DNA of 64,000 nucleotides from an uncultured bacterium (GTDB lineage: Bacteria > Patescibacteriota > JABMPQ01 > CAVVCK01), in NCBI GenBank assembly GCA_963746775.1, contig CAVVCK010000001.1, positions 339,050 through 403,049 on the forward strand, in the 5' to 3' direction. A program made the translations under genes and the position numbers. The notes beneath the pieces are model-generated. The model saw only the letters and a list, made by a program, of their open reading frames with translations. It was not told the DNA's origin and ran no database searches. This document shows, piece by piece, positions 4,158 through 62,700 of the stretch. Each line of letters opens with the position of its first letter. Positions within the stretch are counted from its first letter, which is position 1.

Positions 4158-4838
4158 TTATATTTTATCATTTATTAGTCCATCTTTCAATCTAATTGTC
4201 TTTTTGGCATATTCGGCAATTTCTTCTTCATGGGTTACCATAATGATTGTTTTACCAGCTTTATTTAAATTTTTTAAAATTTCCATTATTTCTAGCCCTT
4301 TTCGGGTATCAAGATTTCCCGTAGGTTCATCAGCTAATATAATTGAAGGACTATTAATTAAAGCTCTGGCTATAGCAATTCTTTGTTGCTCTCCTCCGGA
4401 TATCTCATTGGGCTTATGTTTCGTGCGATGAAATAAACCTACTTCTTTCAAGGCCTTTTCGGCTTTTCTTTTTCTATTTTTATAACTAATCCTCTTTTTA
4501 TTATACGACAAAGGCAGCATTACATTTTCGAGAGCACTATGGCGTGATAATAAATTAAACATTTGAAAAACGAATCCTATTTTGTTATTTCTAATTCGAG
4601 CAAGCTCTTTCTTACTTTTCTGGTCTACTCTTTTACCACTCAACAAATAACCGCCTGCGGTAGGAGTATCCAGAAGTCCTATCAAATTCATTAAAGTTGT
4701 TTTACCACTACCTGATGGCCCCATTAAGGCTATAAAATCTCCTTTCTCAACCTCCAAAGAGATATTCTGCAAAGCTTCAACTTTAACTTTGCCCAAGCTA
4801 TAAGTTTTCTTTATATTTTTTAATTCTATTAAGGGCAT
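4158..4838 (-). CDS. ABC transporter ATP-binding protein (MacB/LolD-type)
   Basis: Walker A GPSGSGKTT, ABC signature LSGGEQQRIAIARAL and Walker B ILADEPT. Confidence 0.9.
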   Translation of the reverse strand: MPLIELKNIKKTYSLGKVKVEALQNISLEVEKGDFIALMGPSGSGKTTLMNLIGLLDTPTAGGYLLSGKRVDQKSKKELARIRNNKIGFVFQMFNLLSRHSALENVMLPLSYNKKRISYKNRKRKAEKALKEVGLFHRTKHKPNEISGGEQQRIAIARALINSPSIILADEPTGNLDTRKGLEIMEILKNLNKAGKTIIMVTHEEEIAEYAKKTIRLKDGLINDKI

Positions 4839-4900
4839 ATTTAAATTTAATTAACTTTTTTATATTAAATAATTACACGCGGATTTAAAATTTATATTTT

Positions 4901-8873: not shown

Positions 8874-9548
8874 ATGACATCAGAACGCCTCCAAAAAATA
8901 ATCGCCCAATCAGGACTTTGTTCCAGAAGATCCGCTGAAAAATTAATCGCTCAGGGCAAAGTTACTATAAATAATAAAATAGCTAAGCTTGGTGATAAAG
9001 CCACAAACCAGGATATTATTAAAGTTGAGAATAAAATTATTAAATCTCAAGAAGAAAAAATTTATATCGCACTAAATAAACCAGCCAGCTACACTACTAC
9101 TAATAAAGATAGGTTTGCCGAGAAAAAAGTTATTGATTTAATCAATATTCCTCAAAGAATTTTCCCAGTTGGACGATTAGACAAAGATACGGAAGGATTA
9201 ATATTCCTAACTAATGATGGTAATTGGACTAATAAAATTACCCATCCTAAGTTCGAGAAAGAAAAAGAATATTACGTCGAGCTAAATAAAATTTTAAAAA
9301 AAGAAATTTTAAATGAAATAAATAAAGGCTTTACATTAGAAGATGGATATATAAAACCTTTGGTAAAAATAATTTCCAATAAATCTTATTTAATTATAAT
9401 TCACGAAGGAAAAAATAGAATTGTGAAAAGGATATTTAGAAATTTTGGCTATCATGTAAAAAGACTTGTTCGAGTTAGAATTGGAAAATTTGAATTAGGT
9501 GATTTAGAATCAGGAAGATGGAAATATATTAAACCAAACTCTATCTAA
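8874..9548 (+). CDS. Pseudouridine synthase, RsuA/RluB family
   Basis: S4 domain (GLCSRRSAEKLI) and the catalytic motif GRLDKDTEGL. Confidence 0.85.
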   Translation: MTSERLQKIIAQSGLCSRRSAEKLIAQGKVTINNKIAKLGDKATNQDIIKVENKIIKSQEEKIYIALNKPASYTTTNKDRFAEKKVIDLINIPQRIFPVGRLDKDTEGLIFLTNDGNWTNKITHPKFEKEKEYYVELNKILKKEILNEINKGFTLEDGYIKPLVKIISNKSYLIIIHEGKNRIVKRIFRNFGYHVKRLVRVRIGKFELGDLESGRWKYIKPNSI

Positions 9549-9550
9549 CA

Positions 9551-16132: not shown

Positions 16133-17210
16133 TTACCGTTTAGAATCTGGTTGGTATTTAGAAATAATTTCAGGCATATTGGCCTGTTTTTTAATTGTTA
16201 ATTCAAGGGGATATTTACCATTTAGATATTTGAATTTCTGACTACAATCAGTATATTTTTTTGTTCTTCTACGGATTAAATAAGCATTAAGAAATCTTTC
16301 AGCATTCTTAAATGATTTGAATCCTTTAATACTTGTTAGTCTAGCGTTTAAATGTGAATTGAATAGTTCTATTAGATTAGTATCTCTAGGACAGTGGGGT
16401 ATATTTTGGTAAGTGAATAGGTTTTCTTCTTTCTTGTAGATATCTATTAGAACACTTTGTCTTAATAAATTCTTTCTCGCATACTTGGTAAATATATTAT
16501 GTAAAGATTTGTTTAATTCTTCTTTAGTTTTTTTCTCCTCTACTTTACTTTTAAAAATATATTCATTAAGCTTGTGAAAAAATAGTAGGTGTTGTTCTTC
16601 CGTCCTTATTCTTGTTTTTTGTCTTATGTTTTCTAGATAATGATTGTGGCAAAGCTGTATTTTGGCTTTAGGATAATAGTACAAAAGCCCTGGTTTTAGG
16701 GCAGGCAGTATATCGTCACAGATAACTACTTGTAGTGGATAGTTACAAGTCTTTAATAATCTAAAGTATCTTCTAAAGGCTTCTTCATTCTCTGAAGGAG
16801 AAAGTATTCCTACAGGAAGATCATGCTTTAGATAATCAATACCGTAAATGAACGGTATTTTTTTATGGTAGCCTTTTACTTTTATGAACTTACCATCAAC
16901 TACAATAACACCTGAGAAGCGATTGCAATAGCTCATTGTTAGCCAAGTGTTATTAGATAAGCTATTCATTTCTTCTTCTACCTGAAGAAAAACTTTAGCA
17001 GGAGATATATTATTCTCATCAGCTAGTTTTCTAAAAGATATTCCATCAACATGTTAAATCCATAACTTTTTCTTTTTACTCCGATGATCAATTGAAAATG
17101 AGCTTTTACATATTTTACAATAATATCTTTTCCTACCATCTCTGCTACCCCATTTAATAGTTCTTTTACTTTTACACTTAGGACACTTTAATTTACGTTT
17201 TTTTTGTCAT
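16133..17210 (-). pseudogene. IS1-family transposase (InsA-like Zn-finger N-terminus plus InsB-like DDE domain), disrupted
   Basis: The 278-aa ORF carries TNLIELFNSHLNARLTSIKGFKSFKNAERFLNAYL (compare IS1 InsB [27 protein letters not shown]...YL). Upstream in the same frame, the reading is continuous across a TAA at 17054-17056. A Zn-finger segment (KLKCPKCKSKRTIKWGSRDGRKRYYCKICKSSF) lies further 5' and is only in frame with the ATG at 17208-17210 if the A8 run at 17198-17205 is read as A7. Confidence 0.65.
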
Positions 17211-17297
17211 GTTTTGCTTAATTAACTAGTTAAATCAGTATATTTTAACTAAATTAAGCTTTAAAATCAAGATTTACCAACCGAAATCTAAACGGTA
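16134..17297 (-). mobile_element. IS1-family insertion sequence (~1.16 kb) with 23-bp imperfect terminal inverted repeats and a 10-bp target-site duplication
   Basis: Left IR is TACCGTTTAGAATCTGGTTGGTA (16134-16156) and right IR is TACCAACCGAAATCTAAACGGTA (17275-17297), matching at 20 of 23 positions. Flanking direct repeats CCAACCAATA lie at 16122-16131 and 17299-17308. The internal transposase has the IS1 InsB-type signature. Confidence 0.8.
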
Positions 17298-17550
17298 TCC
17301 AACCAATACGAAACTGAGCATTCCCCGCTCTAGCCGGACCTTGATGATCGGTCTCTGTCCTCTGACAGTAGACACGGCCTCCATGACTTTCCGGACAATG
17401 TTGTAATTCACTATCCCCAGAAGTTTCAGCCACCATCACAGGCTCTGCATCTCCTTCTCTTCCAATCTTTAGCCCAAGCCTAACACCGTCTCCTATCGAA
17501 AAACCGGTATCAACCACATGATCTCCTTTTCCCATCTTCACGTCACTCAT
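17254..17550 (-). CDS. Small GC-rich hypothetical protein whose last ~21 codons were replaced by the IS insertion
   Basis: Joining the flanks at the target-site duplication reconstructs an uninterrupted C-terminus ...AQFRIGWATVFRNSGNEWYEN*. The current ORF instead reads into the IS right end (...RIGWIPFRFRLVNLDFKA*). Local GC is ~50% against ~30% background. Confidence 0.4.
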   Translation of the reverse strand: MSDVKMGKGDHVVDTGFSIGDGVRLGLKIGREGDAEPVMVAETSGDSELQHCPESHGGRVYCQRTETDHQGPARAGNAQFRIGWIPFRFRLVNLDFKA

Positions 17551-17671
17551 CCTTCCCTTCCTTTCGTTATCCCCCTCAAAAAAATGTGCAAGTTTATATA
17601 ATAATTATATTTTAGACCTAGTCAAATAAAAAAGACTCCGATAAGGTCTTTTTTATAAAATTCAAAGATAC

Positions 17672-19180
17672 TTAAACCAAACTCTCTCCTGTCATCTCCT
17701 TCGGCTTTTCTAAATTCAACATCTTCAATATAGTCGGTGCCACATCCTGCAACCCTCCTTTATTTCTCAAAATTTTAGAATATTTATTACTTATTAATAT
17801 AAACGGCACAGGATTGGTCGTATGAGCAGTCATAGGTTCGCCTGTTTCCATATCTACCATTTCCTCAGCATTACCATGATCAGCTGTAATTATAATATGA
17901 TAGTTTTTCTTCAATCCTTCCCGAACGATATCACCAATTGCTTTATCTATAGTCTCCACCCCTTTAATAATTGGTTTAGGATTAGCTGTATGCCCCACCA
18001 TATCTCCATTACATAAATTGGTAAAAATTACTTCATGTGCTTCGTCTCTAGTATCTTGTATAATTTCACGAGCAATATCCGGAGTACGCATTTCTGGTTT
18101 TTCATCATGGGTTTTTATATCGGAGTACGAATCCAACATTATCCTATCCTCACCTTCCAAGGCCTTCATTTTTTTACAATTTAGAAAATAGGTTAAATGG
18201 TTAAATTTTTCTGTCTCCGTTACACGTAATTGTTTTAAACCTGCTTGAGATATTATTTCACCTAAAGTATTTATAATCTTCTCCGGCTGGAAGGCAACCT
18301 CGCAGTCAAATTCTTCTCTATATTGTGTCATAGTCACATATTTTAAATTCTTTATTTTTGATTTTAAAAATTTATCCGTCATTTGTACTGCTCTATCTGA
18401 TCTAAAGTTTACAAATATTACTGCATCGTTAGATTTAATACAGCCCTCTTCACCTTCACCAATTTCAATATGGCAGGGCCGTATAAATTCATCAGTCTCG
18501 CCTGATTTATAAGCATCATCAATAGCTTCGCAAGCATCTTTATATTTTTTTCCCTCTTTACCAACTAAAATATTGAAGGACTTATCCAAGCGGTCATAAT
18601 TATTATCTCTATCCATAGCATAATATCTGCCCGCAATTGAGGCTATTTTGCCAAATTCAATTTTATCAATATAGTCTTGCAGTTCTCCTACATATTTCTT
18701 AGCGCTCTTAGGTAATGTATCCCGTCCATCCGTAAAAACATGCACTAAAACATTTTTAACACCCATCTTTTTAGCTAAATCCAAAAGAGCATAAAAATGT
18801 TCCTGATGAGAATGTACTCCGCCCGGACTTACCAAACCCTTCAAATGCAAAGTGCTGTTATTTTTCTTAACATGTTCTATAGCTCCTAAAATCGCTTTAT
18901 TTTTTTCAATATCCTTAGATTCAATTGCCTTTTTTATTTTTAATAAATCTTGAAAAATAATTCGGCCTGCACCAATAGTCATATGATTTACTTCCGATGT
19001 ACCCATTTGGCCAACTGGCAACCCCACACTTTCTCCCGAAGCATTTAAAATTGCATAGGGATATTTTTTTAGAAATTTATCATAATTAGGGGTATTGGCT
19101 TGTGCTATAGCGTTATTTTCTGCTTCCTCTAAATAACCCCAGCCATCTAGAATTATTAAAATTAGTCTATCTTTGGTCAT
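17672..19180 (-). CDS. gpmI: 2,3-bisphosphoglycerate-independent phosphoglycerate mutase
   Basis: iPGM N-terminus (LIILDGWGY) and full length ~500 aa. Confidence 0.9.
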   Translation of the reverse strand: MTKDRLILIILDGWGYLEEAENNAIAQANTPNYDKFLKKYPYAILNASGESVGLPVGQMGTSEVNHMTIGAGRIIFQDLLKIKKAIESKDIEKNKAILGAIEHVKKNNSTLHLKGLVSPGGVHSHQEHFYALLDLAKKMGVKNVLVHVFTDGRDTLPKSAKKYVGELQDYIDKIEFGKIASIAGRYYAMDRDNNYDRLDKSFNILVGKEGKKYKDACEAIDDAYKSGETDEFIRPCHIEIGEGEEGCIKSNDAVIFVNFRSDRAVQMTDKFLKSKIKNLKYVTMTQYREEFDCEVAFQPEKIINTLGEIISQAGLKQLRVTETEKFNHLTYFLNCKKMKALEGEDRIMLDSYSDIKTHDEKPEMRTPDIAREIIQDTRDEAHEVIFTNLCNGDMVGHTANPKPIIKGVETIDKAIGDIVREGLKKNYHIIITADHGNAEEMVDMETGEPMTAHTTNPVPFILISNKYSKILRNKGGLQDVAPTILKMLNLEKPKEMTGESLV

Positions 19181-19306
19181 TTTCTATTATTATTAATTAT
19201 ATTCTAAGTATATAGTTTTTTATTAAATATTCAATAATTTCGAAAAGATAATTTTATTTTTTTTACCTTATTATAGCCAATTTTTGACTAGTTTACACTA
19301 AAATCC

Positions 19307-19335
19307 TTGACATAAATACAACTATATGCTATTAT
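19307..19335 (+). promoter_or_regulatory. Near-consensus sigma70 promoter (TTGACA-N17-TATTAT) driving the GC-rich ncRNA island
   Basis: TTGACA at 19307-19312, a 17-bp spacer, then TATTAT at 19330-19335. No protein gene lies downstream on the plus strand. Confidence 0.55.
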
Positions 19336-19389
19336 CTGCAAGTTATGCTTCCAAAATGCATATTTTTCTATTAAATTAGCATTTCATAG

Positions 19390-19787
19390 AAATAACGCAC
19401 ATTGGAAGGGAGGTGGCCGTGTTTTATTACGCGGTCCGGTTCGATTGACGAAGGGCCCTTGCGCCCAACACAAACGTCAAAGAGAAGAACCCGAAAACCA
19501 CAACCGGCTCTCGGCCATCGAGCGACGAACAGCCAGAGCCATAACTGTCCCTTTGGGACAAGGAAGGAAGGTAAAGCACCACCTGTTCTGACATACTCTG
19601 TCTGATCTGCCTGGTGAGCAGAGATGAAAGACAGAGAGAGCTCGTGCATCTGCGCGAGCTACCATCTCCTCCAAAAAAGGAGGTGGATCAGGCACGGTCA
19701 ATGGTGCTGGAGTTTTCTCTCGCAAGAGAGAAATACCCCGAAAAAAAGGGAGGTCACTGAGCTATTGCAGTTCAAACCTCCAGTCTC
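19390..19787 (+). ncRNA. Unclassified structured RNA in a GC-rich island (predicted mature RNA from roughly 19343 to the hammerhead cleavage site at 19787)
   Basis: ~52% GC against ~30% background. Multiple perfect helices are visible: AGCTCGTGC/GCGCGAGCT at 19640-19661, CTCTGTCT/AGACAGAG at 19606-19636, GGCTCT/AGAGCC, GTCCC/GGGAC, and GGAGGT...ACCTCC. Overlapping ORFs on both strands are short and mutually exclusive. The RNase P P4 motif (GGCTTA) and tmRNA termini were not found. Confidence 0.45.
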
Positions 19788-19844
19788 TCCCGCTAAAAGC
19801 GGGACTGATGAGTCCTGATTATACAATTTATAAGGACGAAAGAC
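19783..19844 (+). ncRNA. Candidate type III hammerhead ribozyme at the 3' end of the GC-rich RNA
   Basis: All core positions are present. Stem I is TCCCGC-TAAAA-GCGGGA (19788-19804), followed by CUGAUGA (19805-19811). Stem II is GTCCT...AGGAC (19812-19837) with the G10.1-C11.1 pair. GAAA is at 19838-19841. Stem III is GTC(19783-19785)/GAC(19842-19844) plus the A15.1-U16.1 pair. The cleavage triplet is CUC, with the cut between 19787 and 19788. Stem III is only 4 bp. Confidence 0.45.
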
Positions 19845-19847
19845 CAT

Positions 19848-19875
19848 AAAAAAGAATTTGGTAAAATCCAGGTTC
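19848..19875. terminator. Bidirectional terminator hairpin (AAAAAAGAA...TTCTTTTTT) between the ncRNA and ogt
   Basis: 9-bp A/T-rich stem with T-runs on both strands between convergent transcription units. Confidence 0.4.
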
Positions 19876-19879
19876 TTTT

Positions 19880-20176
19880 TTATTTGAAATTATACAGATA
19901 TTTATTTAAATCAATTTTGCCTGACTTAATTTCTACTCCCTCTTCTTTTAATTTCTCTTTTTTCTTCTTATGCCCCCACCTAAATCCACCTACAAACCCA
20001 TCAGATCTAACTACTCTGTGACAAGGAACCTGCTTACTTCTATTTTTATTCAAAGCATTGCCTACTGCTCGATATGCTTTTGGCATACCTAAAGCTCGAG
20101 CTATTTCTTTATAAGCAGAAACTTTTCCTCTAGGTATTTTTTGCGTAATTTCAAATACTTTTTCTTTAAAATTCAT
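19880..20176 (-). CDS. ogt: Methylated-DNA--protein-cysteine methyltransferase (Ogt/MGMT DNA-binding domain protein)
   Basis: Active-site PCHRVV motif. Confidence 0.85.
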   Translation of the reverse strand: MNFKEKVFEITQKIPRGKVSAYKEIARALGMPKAYRAVGNALNKNRSKQVPCHRVVRSDGFVGGFRWGHKKKKEKLKEEGVEIKSGKIDLNKYLYNFK

Positions 20177-20190
20177 ATGTTAATATAAAA

Positions 20191-20213
20191 GGCAGGATAA
20201 GATCCTGCCCTAC
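20191..20213 (-). terminator. Palindrome family 3 (GTAGGGCAGGATCTTATCCTGCC + T-run on the minus strand); terminator after dfx
   Basis: GC-rich 7-8-bp stem followed by TTTTAT on the minus strand. A second copy at 59662-59684 follows the RND gene. Confidence 0.65.
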
Positions 20214-20239
20214 ACTGTTTTTTATAGCAAAAACATATT

Positions 20240-20617
20240 TTATTCACTTTTCCACAATTCATGAATATTACAATATTCTCGAGCGCTAATATTATCAGCT
20301 TTTACACAAAATTCTGCTTCAGGACTATCACCGGGCTTTAGATATTTACGATAAGTTACTCCATCAGCCTCAATAGCAATCCATTCAATATAATGTTCCT
20401 CCTCCATAGGATGAAGAACTGAGCCAACCTTTACTTTCACGCCATTTTCTGTCTTCTCGATTACCGGCACATGTTTTTCATTGCCTTCGTCTTCACTCTT
20501 CTCTTTTTGCAACTTCATAGGCTCTCCACAACAAACTAATTCTCCTGCACCTCCATGTAATACCTCTACGATATTGCCACAAACTTCACATTTATAAACT
20601 TGTTTTTGTTCTGCCAT
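20240..20617 (-). CDS. dfx: Desulfoferrodoxin (2Fe superoxide reductase)
   Basis: N-terminal desulforedoxin Cys cluster (CEVCGN...VCCGEPM) plus the C-terminal SOR domain (HVPVIE, ...YCNIHELW). Confidence 0.85.
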
Positions 20618-59625: not shown

Positions 59626-59718
59626 GTAGGTTGGGTTGAGTACTCGAAACCCAACAAAAAAGGCAGGATACGATCCTGCCCTACAATATTGTTGTACATA
59701 CAGGTTTCAAACCTGTAT
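59626..59718 (-). repeat. Cluster of three different REP-like palindromes between the RND gene and msrB: family 2 (59626-59655), family 3 (59662-59684) and family 1 (59694-59718)
   Basis: GTAGGTTGGGTTGAGTACTCGAAACCCAAC, GGCAGGATACGATCCTGCCCTAC and GTACATACAGGTTTCAAACCTGTAT lie consecutively, 6 bp after the RND stop. Confidence 0.8.
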
Positions 59719-59724
59719 TTCTAA

Positions 59725-62700
59725 TTAGCCAACAACCTTCCTCCCAAACCTCCCCCTAAACCACCCAAATATTCTCTCCACCATATTAATTACAATCGGC
59801 AAAACTATCAAATTACCAATAGTGGCAAAAGTTAAACCGAAAATTACAGTTGTCCCCAATCCTCTCCAGAAAGGATCTTGAATTGTTAGGGGTACAATGG
59901 CGGCAATAGTAGTAATAGAAGTAGAAAAAATAGGTTTAAATCTCATCTTGCCAGTCTCAACTAGCGCTTCAGATAATTTTTGATTTTTATCTCTCTTTCT
60001 TAATCTATTGAAATAATCAATAAAGACAATGGCATCATTAACCACAATACCTACTAGAGTTATTACACCTAAACCGGAGATCATATCCAGTGAACTTCCT
60101 ACCGCATAAAGTGCTGGAAAAACACCAATCAAAGCCACTGGTACTGCCAACATAATCATTAAAGGCTGTAAGTAAGAATTAAATTGATAAGCTAAGATCA
60201 AAAAAACAGCTATAATAGCAATAATAAAGGTAACTAAAAGCTTGTTAAAGTCAGTAGCAATATCAGAAGCAAAGCCGCCGTAAGCAATACTATCTTCATC
60301 TAGACCAAAATCATTCAGTCTGTCTTTATTTAGATAATCTTGGATATCTTTTTGTACTTTAGTAATTTCAGCTGCCTTATCCTCATCAGCTACATCTAAA
60401 TATATTTGGTAAGAAACCGACCTTGCCCCATCAATAAAGTTAATCGATTGAGCCTTGTCCTCCGACTTTACTTCCGCTATATCAGACAATTTAATAGGCT
60501 TTATACCTTGCACTCCTACAATTAAATTTTTTATATCATCGATAGATTTTTTAGAATTTTCATTGAATAATAATTTTACTCCATCTTGCCTACCGCCTTC
60601 TCCAATAGTTACTTTGCCTAAATCAGATTCAGAAAAGACGCTATTTACAATCATAGAAGTAGTCAGCGGTGCAATACCATATTCTTCTATTTTATTTTTA
60701 TCAAAATTAATCTCTATAGAAGGAACTAAATTATCTTTTAGCTCATTGCTAATCTTATTAATTTTAAAATCTCCATTATCTTCTTTTCCTACAACAAAAC
60801 TGTCTAACCCCTCTATAGTTTTTTTAATAGCTTCTCCATCGGTATTTTTTACTTCTACAATAACATCATAAGAGGAAGAGGTTGGGCCATAGCCTTGAGC
60901 ACCAACACTAATAGTAGTATCTTGAGGTGCCCTATCTCTAATATAATTAATTTTTTCGTTCAAATTATCTACAATAGTATAGACTGTAGTATCTTTATCA
61001 TTTCTTCTTTTTGATGGATCAGTTATTAAAATAAATAGCTGCCCTTGCATCATAAATGAACCTTCGAAATACGGTACTTTTATGGCTTCTTTCATTAAAT
61101 CAGAAGTTATTTCTTTCTTTACTTCATTGCTTGTCCCTACTGGAAAATCCATGCTTATACTAAATTGCTGGGTATCAGTCATAGGAAATTGAGAAGATTT
61201 CACCTTGCCTGTTCCTACTAAAGACATACTATAAATAAATCCAGCCAATAGAATCAAAACTATAGCTAATTTATAAGTCCATTTTCTATAAACCCTAGAC
61301 ATAAATCGGCCATAAACTTCCACTAGTTTATCAATCATTTTCTGGCCATAAAAAACTATAGCTGGCAAAACTAAATATTTTTGTGATTTGGTTAATCTTC
61401 TTTCTTTTCTTTCTTCTTCTGTCTCTTTCTTTAAAATCCATTTACCTAGAAGTGGAGTAATACTAATGGCTAAAAAATAAGATACCACTAACATAATAAT
61501 CATAGTATAGGGAATATATTTCATAAATTCCCCTATAATTCCACCCATTCTGGCAGCCGGAATGAAAACTACCACTGTTGTCGCTGTAGCTGAAGTTACC
61601 GCCGGACCTAAATCGCGAATAGTACTCAGTGCTGCTTTTAATTTGCTGTCTCCGTACTTACTCATGCGATGCTGCATACCTTCAGCAATAACAATAGCAT
61701 TATCAACTATAATACCTAGGGTCAAAATCATAGCAAAGGTTGTCAGAATATTAATAGTAAAGCCCAGCTCGTAGAGAATAAATAAAGTTATTAAGAAAGA
61801 AAAAGGGACAATCAGTGATACTACTAAGCCTGCCCTAATATCAATAAAAAACATAAAGACAACCAATATAATAATTAAACCAAAAATCCCATTGCGAAGC
61901 AGCGTTGATATTTGAGTCTCTACATAGGTTGAAGAATCATAAGTTAAATCGATATTAATATTTTCATCTAGAATATTTTTATCATAAATTTTATCTATGG
62001 CCGCCGTAATATCTTTTTTCATCTTAATAACATCTCCCTTGTCTTGTTTAATCAACATTAGATATACTGCCTGATCACTATATTGAGGCTGCCCATCTCT
62101 TAAAAATCCAGCTGCCAATTGAGTATCACCTGACTTCGCTTCTTCCGTTATCTCGGCTATTTCCGATAATTTAGAACCATCAGCCAAAGTTATATTTTTA
62201 ATATCGTCTATTTGGCTTACAGGATTATTAATAGTAATTTGCTTAGAAATATTAGTCTCCTCATCTGTAATGCTTCCTCCAGGCAAGACCTGTAAATTAG
62301 CTTGGATAATTTGCTTTACAGTATTTACATCCAATCTTTTCTCCTGAAGCGCTTTGGCATCAAGCTTGATTTTTACATCAAAATCAGTTTCTGGCATTAC
62401 CTGCACTTCTTTGATTTCTTTACTTTCTTTTTCTAAATATTCTTTTACCTTGGGTGCTTTTTTAATTATTTCATTGTAGGAAATTTTATCACTAGATAAA
62501 ACGTAAACCAAAGAAGGACCAGCTGCATCCTCTGTACCCACATTAATATCCACACCATCCGGCAAGCTAGCTTTATTAGCTAGCTCATTAAATTCAGTAA
62601 TAGTTTTATTAATAGTTTCTTTATCAAAACTCTTAGTCTCGATTACTACGCTTCCATAATTAGCATAAGCTGATGATCTCATCTTTGCTACTTCCTTATG

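Follow-up and report, generated by a model that had tools for sequence, protein, structure and literature searches.

Introduction

Several described systems place a self-cleaving ribozyme downstream of the functional part of an RNA. The mammalian CLEC2 hammerhead is an example of a ribozyme in a 3' untranslated region (3' UTR), and engineered 3'-processing cassettes carry a hammerhead or hepatitis delta virus (HDV) ribozyme ahead of a terminator for exact 3' ends. Messenger RNAs of the hok type are structured and long-lived, have a sequestered Shine-Dalgarno (SD) sequence and depend for their activity on exonucleolytic processing of the 3' end. The only well-understood role of a self-cleaving ribozyme in bacteria is that of glmS, and mRNA 3' processing by bacterial hammerhead or twister ribozymes has so far only been suggested (PMC6765202, section 13). 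Here we describe positions 19307–19883 of a 64-kb stretch of DNA from an uncultured bacterium, the whole of which is referred to as the window, as a single self-contained transcription unit with a type III hammerhead next to its terminator. The unit is probably an autonomous ribozyme-terminated RNA gene, whose product would be a structured RNA trimmed by its own hammerhead.

The ribozyme resembles Rfam family RF00008 (Hammerhead_3, clan CL00010) in its full core, its closed stems I and II, its open stem III and its co-varying stems. Ten copies, from the window and related loci, differ from that family in a fixed stem I format, a mostly long and A-rich loop II, a cleavage triplet that is mostly CUC and a fixed placement relative to hairpin and terminator. 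As with 3'-UTR and intercistronic ribozymes, the self-cleaving RNA follows the functional part of the transcript and would define its 3' end; here, however, it belongs to a stereotyped stand-alone unit, the module is common to unrelated cargoes, and the cargo in the window appears to be a structured RNA. Layout and presumed logic (reading through the ribozyme, termination, cleavage, a 2',3'-cyclic phosphate end) match those of engineered cassettes, except that the window unit occurs naturally, is conserved and is found in several uncultured lineages. Like the OLE, GOLLD, ROOL and raiA RNAs, the product would be long, structured, GC-rich relative to its genome and transcribed from its own promoter, but it is predicted to form a chain of local hairpins instead of a complex long-range fold, is known from two genomes so far and would have a ribozyme-made 3' end. 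The hok mRNAs are a possible functional analogy for protein-coding members of the group, for example the two-transmembrane protein encoded at locus L007 (related loci are designated by L numbers). Unlike hok, the window unit has neither a hydrophobic toxin open reading frame (ORF) nor an antisense promoter, and its processing would be ribozymatic rather than exonucleolytic. Searches of the literature returned nothing relevant on hammerheads in Patescibacteria or in the candidate phyla radiation (CPR).

A hammerhead in a self-contained transcription unit

The unit consists of an extended -10 promoter, a 5' hairpin, an SD sequence with a GUG mini-ORF, a hairpin chain, a type III hammerhead and a bidirectional terminator, in this order. 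A first reading made from the letters of the DNA without database searches (hereafter the sequence-only reading) had described a GC-rich island in AT-rich DNA, and positions 19501–19800 are indeed the 300-nt bin with the highest GC content of the window (0.523 compared with 0.32 for the whole window). The TTGACA-N17-TATTAT promoter of that reading was recovered at 19307–19335 on the plus strand (TTGACA at 19307–19312, 17 nt, TATTAT at 19330–19335) as a sigma-70-type site with 11 of 12 consensus matches and a TG before the -10 element, and it ranked first in a promoter scan of 17000–20400. Transcription is predicted to start near 19342, a position derived from promoter spacing alone. A long, imperfect, AT-rich 5' hairpin (19348–19408, plus strand) begins about 6 nt past this position. 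It is followed on the same strand by the SD-like sequence GGGAGGUG and mini-ORF (19409–19448; SD 19409–19416, GUG 19419, stop 19446–19448), by a GC-rich chain of local hairpins of ~365 nt, here called the cargo (19417–19781), and by the hammerhead (19783–19844). The bidirectional hairpin noted behind the ribozyme in the sequence-only reading is an intrinsic terminator at 19846–19883, in which an A-tract, an 8-bp G/C-containing stem and a U-tract make up a 16-bp A/U-flanked hairpin serving both directions. It overlaps the stop codon of a convergent MGMT-like gene (19880–20176, minus strand) and ends that gene too. A simple terminator scan did not list the hairpin at 19846–19883, presumably because pairing between its A and U tracts leads to their being scored as part of the stem. 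A second sample (L001, ERR11571143) contains a 100% identical sequence that reaches only to 19739, so that the hammerhead lies outside the overlap. An 8-nt direct repeat, TAAAATCC, occurs on either side of the unit at 19299–19306 and 19862–19869; its interpretation as a target-site duplication was dropped, as the right copy is the terminator loop, and the repeat is probably due to chance.

Our descriptor for type III hammerheads matched the 64-kb window only once, at 19783–19844, with stems of 7, 5 and 4 bp. Dinucleotide-shuffled windows gave 0.003 matches per 64 kb under loose criteria and none in 300 shuffles under criteria as strict as the observed motif. The motif, which was also delineated by Rfam Hammerhead_3, by our own hammerhead model R1 and by covariation, comprises on the plus strand stem III (19783–19786 with 19841–19844), C17 at C19787 with a predicted cut at 19787|19788, stem I (19788–19793 with 19799–19804, loop UAAAA), the CUGAUGA core (19805–19811), stem II (19812–19815 with 19834–19837) and GAAA (19838–19841). 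C3-U4-G5-A6-N7-G8-A9, G12-A13-A14, A15.1-U16.1 and H17 are all present. Stems I and II also form when the full transcript is folded. The sequence-only reading had placed a complete hammerhead core at these positions, which the descriptor match, the invariant core and the covariation in ten copies (see below) bear out, and its cleavage position between C19787 and U19788 coincides with the C17 located here.

That reading had also proposed a search of Rfam and a covariation analysis. Rfam was searched with the whole window at gathering threshold, with the island at E up to 10 and with the homologous locus L026 at E up to 5; the sole match was Hammerhead_3, which aligns the entire window motif at 24 bits, below the gathering score of 48.5. 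The gathering score is set for curation rather than on biochemical grounds, and the low value is attributable to the long loop II and the short stem III. The window copy reaches 75.5 bits with model R1.

Conservation of the hammerhead in ten copies

The comparative set comprises ten hammerhead copies from nine loci: the window, L007, L009, L010, L012, L013, L014, L020 and L026 (two copies). A pattern derived from stem II and core of the window hammerhead recovered L007, L008 and L009 from species-representative genomes and L010 and L012 from metagenomes; L008 and L012 are one element, and L007 belongs to Magasanikiibacteriota. Another metagenome match, L011, was discarded as a chance hit (16 bits with model R1). 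Five copies were reached by protein searches, independently of the DNA pattern, namely L013, L014 and L020 from homologues of the L012 cargo protein and both L026 units from a homologue of iPGM, which neighbours the unit in the window. Stem II and inner stem III are constrained by the search pattern in the other five copies; variation in these pairs comes from the protein-route copies, with GGUU/AACC in L020 and GCCC/GGGC in L026 unit B.

CUGAUGA, GAA and C17 are invariant in 10/10 copies, and standard pairs occupy 95% of the pair cells of the alignment. Changes on both sides were found in 12 of the 16 pairs (stem I, 5/6; stem III, 6/6; stem II, 1/4). None of 500 shuffles matched the observed value on any of five measures, and pairing fell to 26–48% when the 3' partners were slid as a control. 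All three stems thus co-vary across the ten copies. Nine of the ten share a stem I of 6 bp with a 5-nt loop (U-R-A-W-R), most have a long, A-rich loop II, and the cleavage triplet is CUC in eight instead of the usual GUC. The shared loop I pattern hints, indirectly, at the tertiary contact of loops I and II on which fast cleavage at physiological Mg2+ depends. The hammerhead of L026 unit A (3626–3563, minus strand) has U15.1-A16.1 in place of A15.1-U16.1 and a CAC triplet, and its stem III still pairs; we interpret it as an uncommon natural variant or else as a copy in decay. No gathering-level Rfam match was obtained in L007, L009, L010 or L012–L014, and the two L026 copies scored 37.8 and 24 bits. 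With all copies measured against Rfam at 24–38 bits compared with the required 48.5, the group is invisible to routine annotation. Judged by its sequence and predicted structure, the window hammerhead is genuine, and it is a member of type III by every such criterion applied except the Rfam cut-off.

A structured RNA as cargo

Folding of the cargo yielded hairpins that include those at 19547–19559, 19596–19636, 19639–19660, 19662–19686, 19692–19707 and 19709–19739 (plus strand) and a terminal hairpin closed by GGAGG/CCUCC at 19749–19781, which abuts the cleavage site. The fold z-scores against dinucleotide shuffles were -8.2 for 19395–19850 and -7.8 for 19342–19787, and all helices named in the sequence-only reading are part of the computed fold. 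L026 unit B (fold z-score -8.6) is homologous to the island from promoter through terminator, with 60% identity over the aligned cargo columns. It keeps the promoter as TTAACA-N17-TGcTAGTAT and the core of the 5' hairpin, UUUCUAU/AUAGAAA, without change. Conserved sequence blocks lie around 19546–19575, 19590–19636 and 19692–19707; an A-tract followed by GG(A/G)GGUCACUG, the cleavage-site sequence CAGUCUC|U, the hammerhead and the terminator are likewise common to both, the terminator being almost unchanged in L026 units A and B.

RNAalifold predicted 104 consensus pairs for the window and L026 unit B, 17 of them compensatory. When the two sequences were folded independently, 31 column pairs coincided, compared with 2.1±3.1 in column-shuffled controls (0/300 reached 31), and 6 hairpins of at least 5 bp were co-located, compared with 0.76±0.92 (0/300 reached 6). 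The stems of three co-located hairpins have been rewritten. The helix at 19639–19660, which MAFFT could not align by sequence and which was therefore compared pair by pair from the independent folds, reads AGCUCGUGC/GCGCGAGCU in the window and ACCCACGCA/UGUGUGGGU in L026 unit B; 7/9 pairs are altered in both strands, and no pair in just one.

Three elements are conserved in sequence: the hairpin 19547–19559 with the purine tract CAAGGAAGGAAGGU, the hairpin 19596–19636 with a CUGGUGA loop, and the hairpin 19692–19707. On account of this conservation, the stretches 19546–19575, 19590–19636 and 19692–19707 are the most likely functional sites. The internal loop of the hairpin 19596–19636, with CUGA... 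facing ...GAUGAA, is reminiscent of a k-turn or box C/D motif; this reading was dropped, as the internal loop is not preserved in L026 unit B, which does retain the stems and the apical CUGGUGA loop. A search for antisense targets of the GC-rich cargo found no meaningful complementarity in other parts of the 64-kb window.

The island is also unlike a protein gene. Its ORFs are short, overlap one another on both strands and have no match in Pfam, PHROGs, PADLOC or NCBIfam, and GC content shows no trend across codon positions in any of the six frames, in contrast to the strong GC3 > GC1 > GC2 order (third, first and second codon position) in the true ORFs of related units. Insertions and deletions between the window and L026 unit B measure 1, 2, 3, 4, 8, 13 and 25 nt and are not multiples of three. 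An exhaustive HMMER search of 1.84 billion representative proteins with the longest sense ORF (67 aa) returned one spurious entry without an aligned stretch. The sequence-only reading had seen no credible ORF here, in keeping with these results. Since the hairpins are kept while the sequence changes, the indels ignore the triplet frame and protein homologues are missing, the cargo is, on comparative grounds, an RNA selected for structure, and in some stretches for sequence, that is new to the libraries searched.

The window RNA may nevertheless not be purely non-coding, given the conserved SD and GUG mini-ORF. The mini-ORF has 9 codons in the window (MFYYAVRFD) and 14 in L026 unit B (MYFYLIIAFLDSWA). 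The main rival to an RNA gene is therefore an mRNA, the product of which would be this short peptide, with the hairpin chain as a stabilising 3' UTR trimmed by the hammerhead. GGAGGUGnnCCGUGU is kept in the window and in L026 unit B while its flanks diverge, both peptides begin with M-[FY]-[FY]-Y, and at L009, L010, L012–L014 and L020 an SD and a start codon at the same place past the 5' hairpin open a real ORF. Against an mRNA, the two mini-ORFs are unequal in length and diverge past codon 4, and L026 unit A has an SD-like motif without a start codon. The window CCGUGU is one strand of a hairpin, so that RNA structure could account for its conservation, and ~340 nt of co-varying hairpins with conserved loops appear excessive for the 3' UTR of a 9-codon ORF. 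We regard the mRNA explanation as unlikely, albeit the most serious of those considered, and continue with the structured RNA as the probable product.

Related units with protein-coding cargo

The related loci have a common architecture of 5' hairpin, cargo that is GC-rich relative to the genome, hairpin, hammerhead and intrinsic terminator. A long 5' hairpin is found at the matching place in L007, L009, L010 and L012–L014, as identified from self-complementary BLAST matches for L007, L009 and L012 and otherwise by reading the sequence, and a stable hairpin stands 2–19 nt ahead of the cleavage site in every readable member. The window, L007, L010 and L026 have a unit promoter; L012–L014, L020 and L021 have in its place a promoter with a terminator-ended leader. 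Beyond the ribozyme module of ~70–110 nt, the bodies of the units have no nucleotide or protein similarity. No cargo shared across units was found, and the proteins of L010 and L012 are unrelated.

The units at L007, L009, L010, L012–L014 and L020 carry as cargo a small ORF of 73–153 codons with clear coding periodicity, in most cases preceded by an SD and starting with ATG. The GC content at third codon positions (GC3) of these ORFs is 0.68–0.90, compared with 0.19–0.65 in neighbouring genes. With L021 included, the cargo ORFs span a GC3 of 0.68–0.93; they are located at L007 6693–6974, L009 1809–2030, L012 9681–10124, L013 2488–2946, L020 1925–2380 and L021 1764–2366 and at L010 5994–6335 (minus strand). 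The cargo proteins have no match in Pfam, PHROGs, PADLOC or NCBIfam and are orphans that are mutually unrelated between families.

L012, L013, L014 and L020 are orthologous and occupy a single locus upstream of an EamA-like gene, with 46–58% protein identity. L021 (1600–2480; also L022 and L023) encodes at the same locus a distant homologue of the L012 cargo (33% identity, 200 aa). Its unit has the 5' hairpin, SD, GC-rich ORF, 3' hairpin and terminator and lacks the hammerhead, which suggests that the ribozyme is an optional part of the unit. In the EamA-locus family including L021, a GC3 of 0.85–0.93 is held over 33–58% protein identity and is thus not a leftover of recent transfer. The EamA-locus units contain a promoter, a leader of ~200 nt and an intrinsic terminator directly before the 5' hairpin, with no obvious promoter in between (leaders at L013 2090–2310, L014 230–470, L012 ~9480–9550 and L021 1430–1650). 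The leader may act as an attenuator or in the manner of a riboswitch, or it may be a small RNA in its own right; Rfam gave no gathering-level match in L012–L014. A 9-mer, TAGTTCTTT, recurs at the 5' side of units (L007 6548; L010 6499, minus strand; L013 2324; L026 3838–3830, minus strand) and is present in L021 at 2380, directly past the stop codon of the cargo. Its recurrence exceeds the chance frequency, and a role as regulator site or boundary element is possible.

The nine loci known so far include two in CPR metagenome-assembled genomes (MAGs) and two assigned to Gammaproteobacteria by an unconfirmed record label. We infer that the hammerhead-terminator module is a portable, general device for 3'-end formation, which would act on mRNAs elsewhere and on a structured RNA in the window lineage. 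More tentatively, the loci may represent an undescribed kind of unit, 'hammerhead-terminated', in which a hammerhead between hairpin and terminator would normally make the 3' end and the cargo would be interchangeable, either a hairpin-array RNA or a high-GC3 orphan gene; we hold this broader proposal to be possible, though short of an even chance.

Genomic neighbourhood and close relatives

The unit is flanked by housekeeping genes (iPGM, MGMT-like, desulfoferrodoxin, glutaredoxin, peroxiredoxin and Fur). The closest named homologues of iPGM are labelled Parcubacteria, Patescibacteria or Microgenomates, which points to a CPR bacterium as the host. Among the relatives examined via iPGM synteny, the unit is missing from L002–L006, L024 and L025. 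The gap between MGMT and iPGM measures 27 nt in L002, whose iPGM is 89% identical, and 72 nt in L024 (86%), and the unit is therefore dispensable. Two other gaps were considered as candidate units and rejected. In L005 the gap is filled by a tRNA-like gene (4770–4900, minus strand), the 3' half of which (...GAAUCCCUCCGAGGGCA) is duplicated past an insert of ~50 nt. In L004 (2330–2620, 2710–4095), a degraded MGMT-like gene is separated from iPGM by an inserted gene for a DUF234/AAA ATPase.

L026 is a Parcubacteria MAG with an iPGM 86% identical to that of the window. It has two tandem hammerhead units between MGMT and iPGM, in the window orientation relative to iPGM, plus an extra ORF. Unit A has a cargo that differs from that of the window unit and is shorter; common to both is the 3' module of A-tract, GGGGGUCACUG...CCUCCA, hammerhead and near-identical terminator. 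The rearrangement in L004 and the double unit and extra ORF in L026 indicate that the MGMT–iPGM junction is a variable spot. BLAST of the island against phages gave no match, and the strict hammerhead pattern had no match in viral contigs. Matches of relaxed hammerhead and cargo-helix patterns in viral collections were dismissed as chance, as none matched model R1 and BLAST alignments were only short.

A second GC-rich island of the window at 17254–17625 (minus strand) has a promoter-like TTGACT-N16-TATTAT (17625–17598) and no Rfam match. At the protein level, its 98-codon ORF is conserved in L002 (62% identity, 78% positives), and its GC3 is host-like (0.33); it is therefore interpreted as a small orphan protein gene and not as an RNA gene. 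ARAGORN detected a tRNA-Ser(UGA) at 59655–59742 (minus strand), which the Rfam gathering-threshold scan of the window did not list.

Proposed maturation of the RNA and competing explanations

The anatomy of the unit and the conservation of both hammerhead and cargo hairpins, as seen in the compared sequences, suggest the following course of events. Transcription would begin near 19342 from the extended -10 promoter, and a long 5' hairpin would form in the transcript, which would then bear the SD and GUG mini-ORF and a stable hairpin chain of ~365 nt. The polymerase would pass the type III hammerhead and halt at the bidirectional terminator; the hammerhead would fold and cut in cis 3' of C19787. 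This would release an RNA of ~446 nt that ends in ...CCUCC-AGUCUC with a 2',3'-cyclic phosphate, six nucleotides past the last hairpin. Ribozyme, terminator hairpin and U-tail would be discarded as a by-product with a 5'-OH. Cleavage chemistry and RNA ends are predicted from established hammerhead chemistry. With a hairpin at its 5' end and a hairpin and cyclic phosphate at its 3' end, the product would be expected to resist exonucleases, and the unit looks built for a persistent RNA, which would act as RNA and in trans. Among these steps, formation of the 3' end by self-cleavage just before the terminator is very probable, as judged from the conserved motif and its placement.

Several observations weigh against an RNA gene trimmed by its own hammerhead. 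The window hammerhead does not reach the Rfam gathering score, and nearest-neighbour folding of the isolated 70-mer did not return the three-way junction. Stem III is, with 4 bp, the weakest of the family: seven of the nine other copies have 5–7 bp, and the window has A·C and C·A where seven of nine pair. The cargo covariation was measured on two sequences and a partial third, with a single further genome (L026) supplying the cargo homologue. Conservation of SD and GUG hints at translation. The close relatives L002 and L024 lack the unit, and L021–L023 have cargo genes without a hammerhead.

One competing explanation takes the unit for a small element of mobile or selfish nature, or for the DNA copy of an RNA resembling a viroid or retrozyme; the hammerhead would then serve replication or circularisation. 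The presence of the unit varies among similarly diverged relatives, L026 has two tandem units at the same spot, the 8-nt direct repeat stands on either side, and the module occurs in differing genomic contexts (window, L007, EamA locus). Such an element is nonetheless improbable: each unit has one hammerhead and no second ribozyme at its 5' end, where excision and circularisation of a monomer would call for two flanking copies or both polarities; neither long terminal repeats nor a neighbouring recombinase or reverse transcriptase are present; and viral contigs, phages and other parts of the window contain no copies. The position of the right repeat copy inside the terminator loop makes a target duplication unlikely, and the orthology of L012, L013, L014 and L020 at one locus with 46–58% identity indicates vertical inheritance. 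Yet more improbable is a pseudogene, that is, a decaying remnant of a protein-coding hammerhead cassette. Other cassettes do bear ORFs, the window copy has the weakest stem III, and close relatives are without the unit, but decay does not yield compensatory double changes that preserve a nine-pair helix, nor would it hold six hairpins in place; promoter, 5' hairpin, hammerhead core and terminator are intact in the window and in L026 unit B, and no frame has leftover codon periodicity.

It is hardly credible that the models have missed a divergent form of a known RNA (tmRNA, RNase P, SRP, 6S, OLE, GOLLD, ROOL or raiA). Size and GC enrichment resemble those of housekeeping RNAs, and there are loose likenesses (GGUUCGA close to the 5' end; GGAAGGAAGG, which recalls SRP domain IV), but only Hammerhead_3 appears in the Rfam searches of island and homologue, ARAGORN finds no tmRNA, close relatives lack the RNA, unlike an essential one, and the string of local hairpins is without the long-range helices of those families. 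The tmRNA-like (GGUUCGA..., ACCUCCA) and SRP-like (GGAAGGAAGG) readings have no model support, and no match was found to the models of RNase P, SRP, 6S, tmRNA, OLE, GOLLD, ROOL, raiA or HEARO. The sequence-only reading had likewise seen no match to RNase P or tmRNA and no convincing one to SRP RNA, and the Rfam and ARAGORN results agree with it. It had further suggested a large RNA class, 'OLE, GOLLD, ROOL, raiA-like or new'; of this, 'new' stands, the named families fall away for want of an Rfam match, and 'class' is generous for an RNA known from two related genomes. The reading that we retain is an RNA gene whose structured product is trimmed by its own hammerhead.

Implications

The ribozyme class is known; the stand-alone unit, the interchangeable cargo and the structured RNA of the window are new as far as the tools used can tell. 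The unit adds an orphan structured RNA from CPR bacteria and reveals a hammerhead group missed by the Rfam threshold. The related loci expose a compositional oddity: their cargo genes keep an extreme GC3 across deep divergence. With the ribozyme always in one place of a simple unit that has a strong promoter and a swappable cargo, the role of bacterial hammerheads becomes open to direct experiment. If the loci do represent hammerhead-terminated units, this would be the first general, mechanistically clear role of a bacterial hammerhead, the making of terminator-less RNAs with a 2',3'-cyclic phosphate. Extreme GC content and hairpin armour would then suggest that the RNAs were selected to persist unusually long in the uncultured bacteria concerned, two lineages of which belong to the CPR and have very small genomes.

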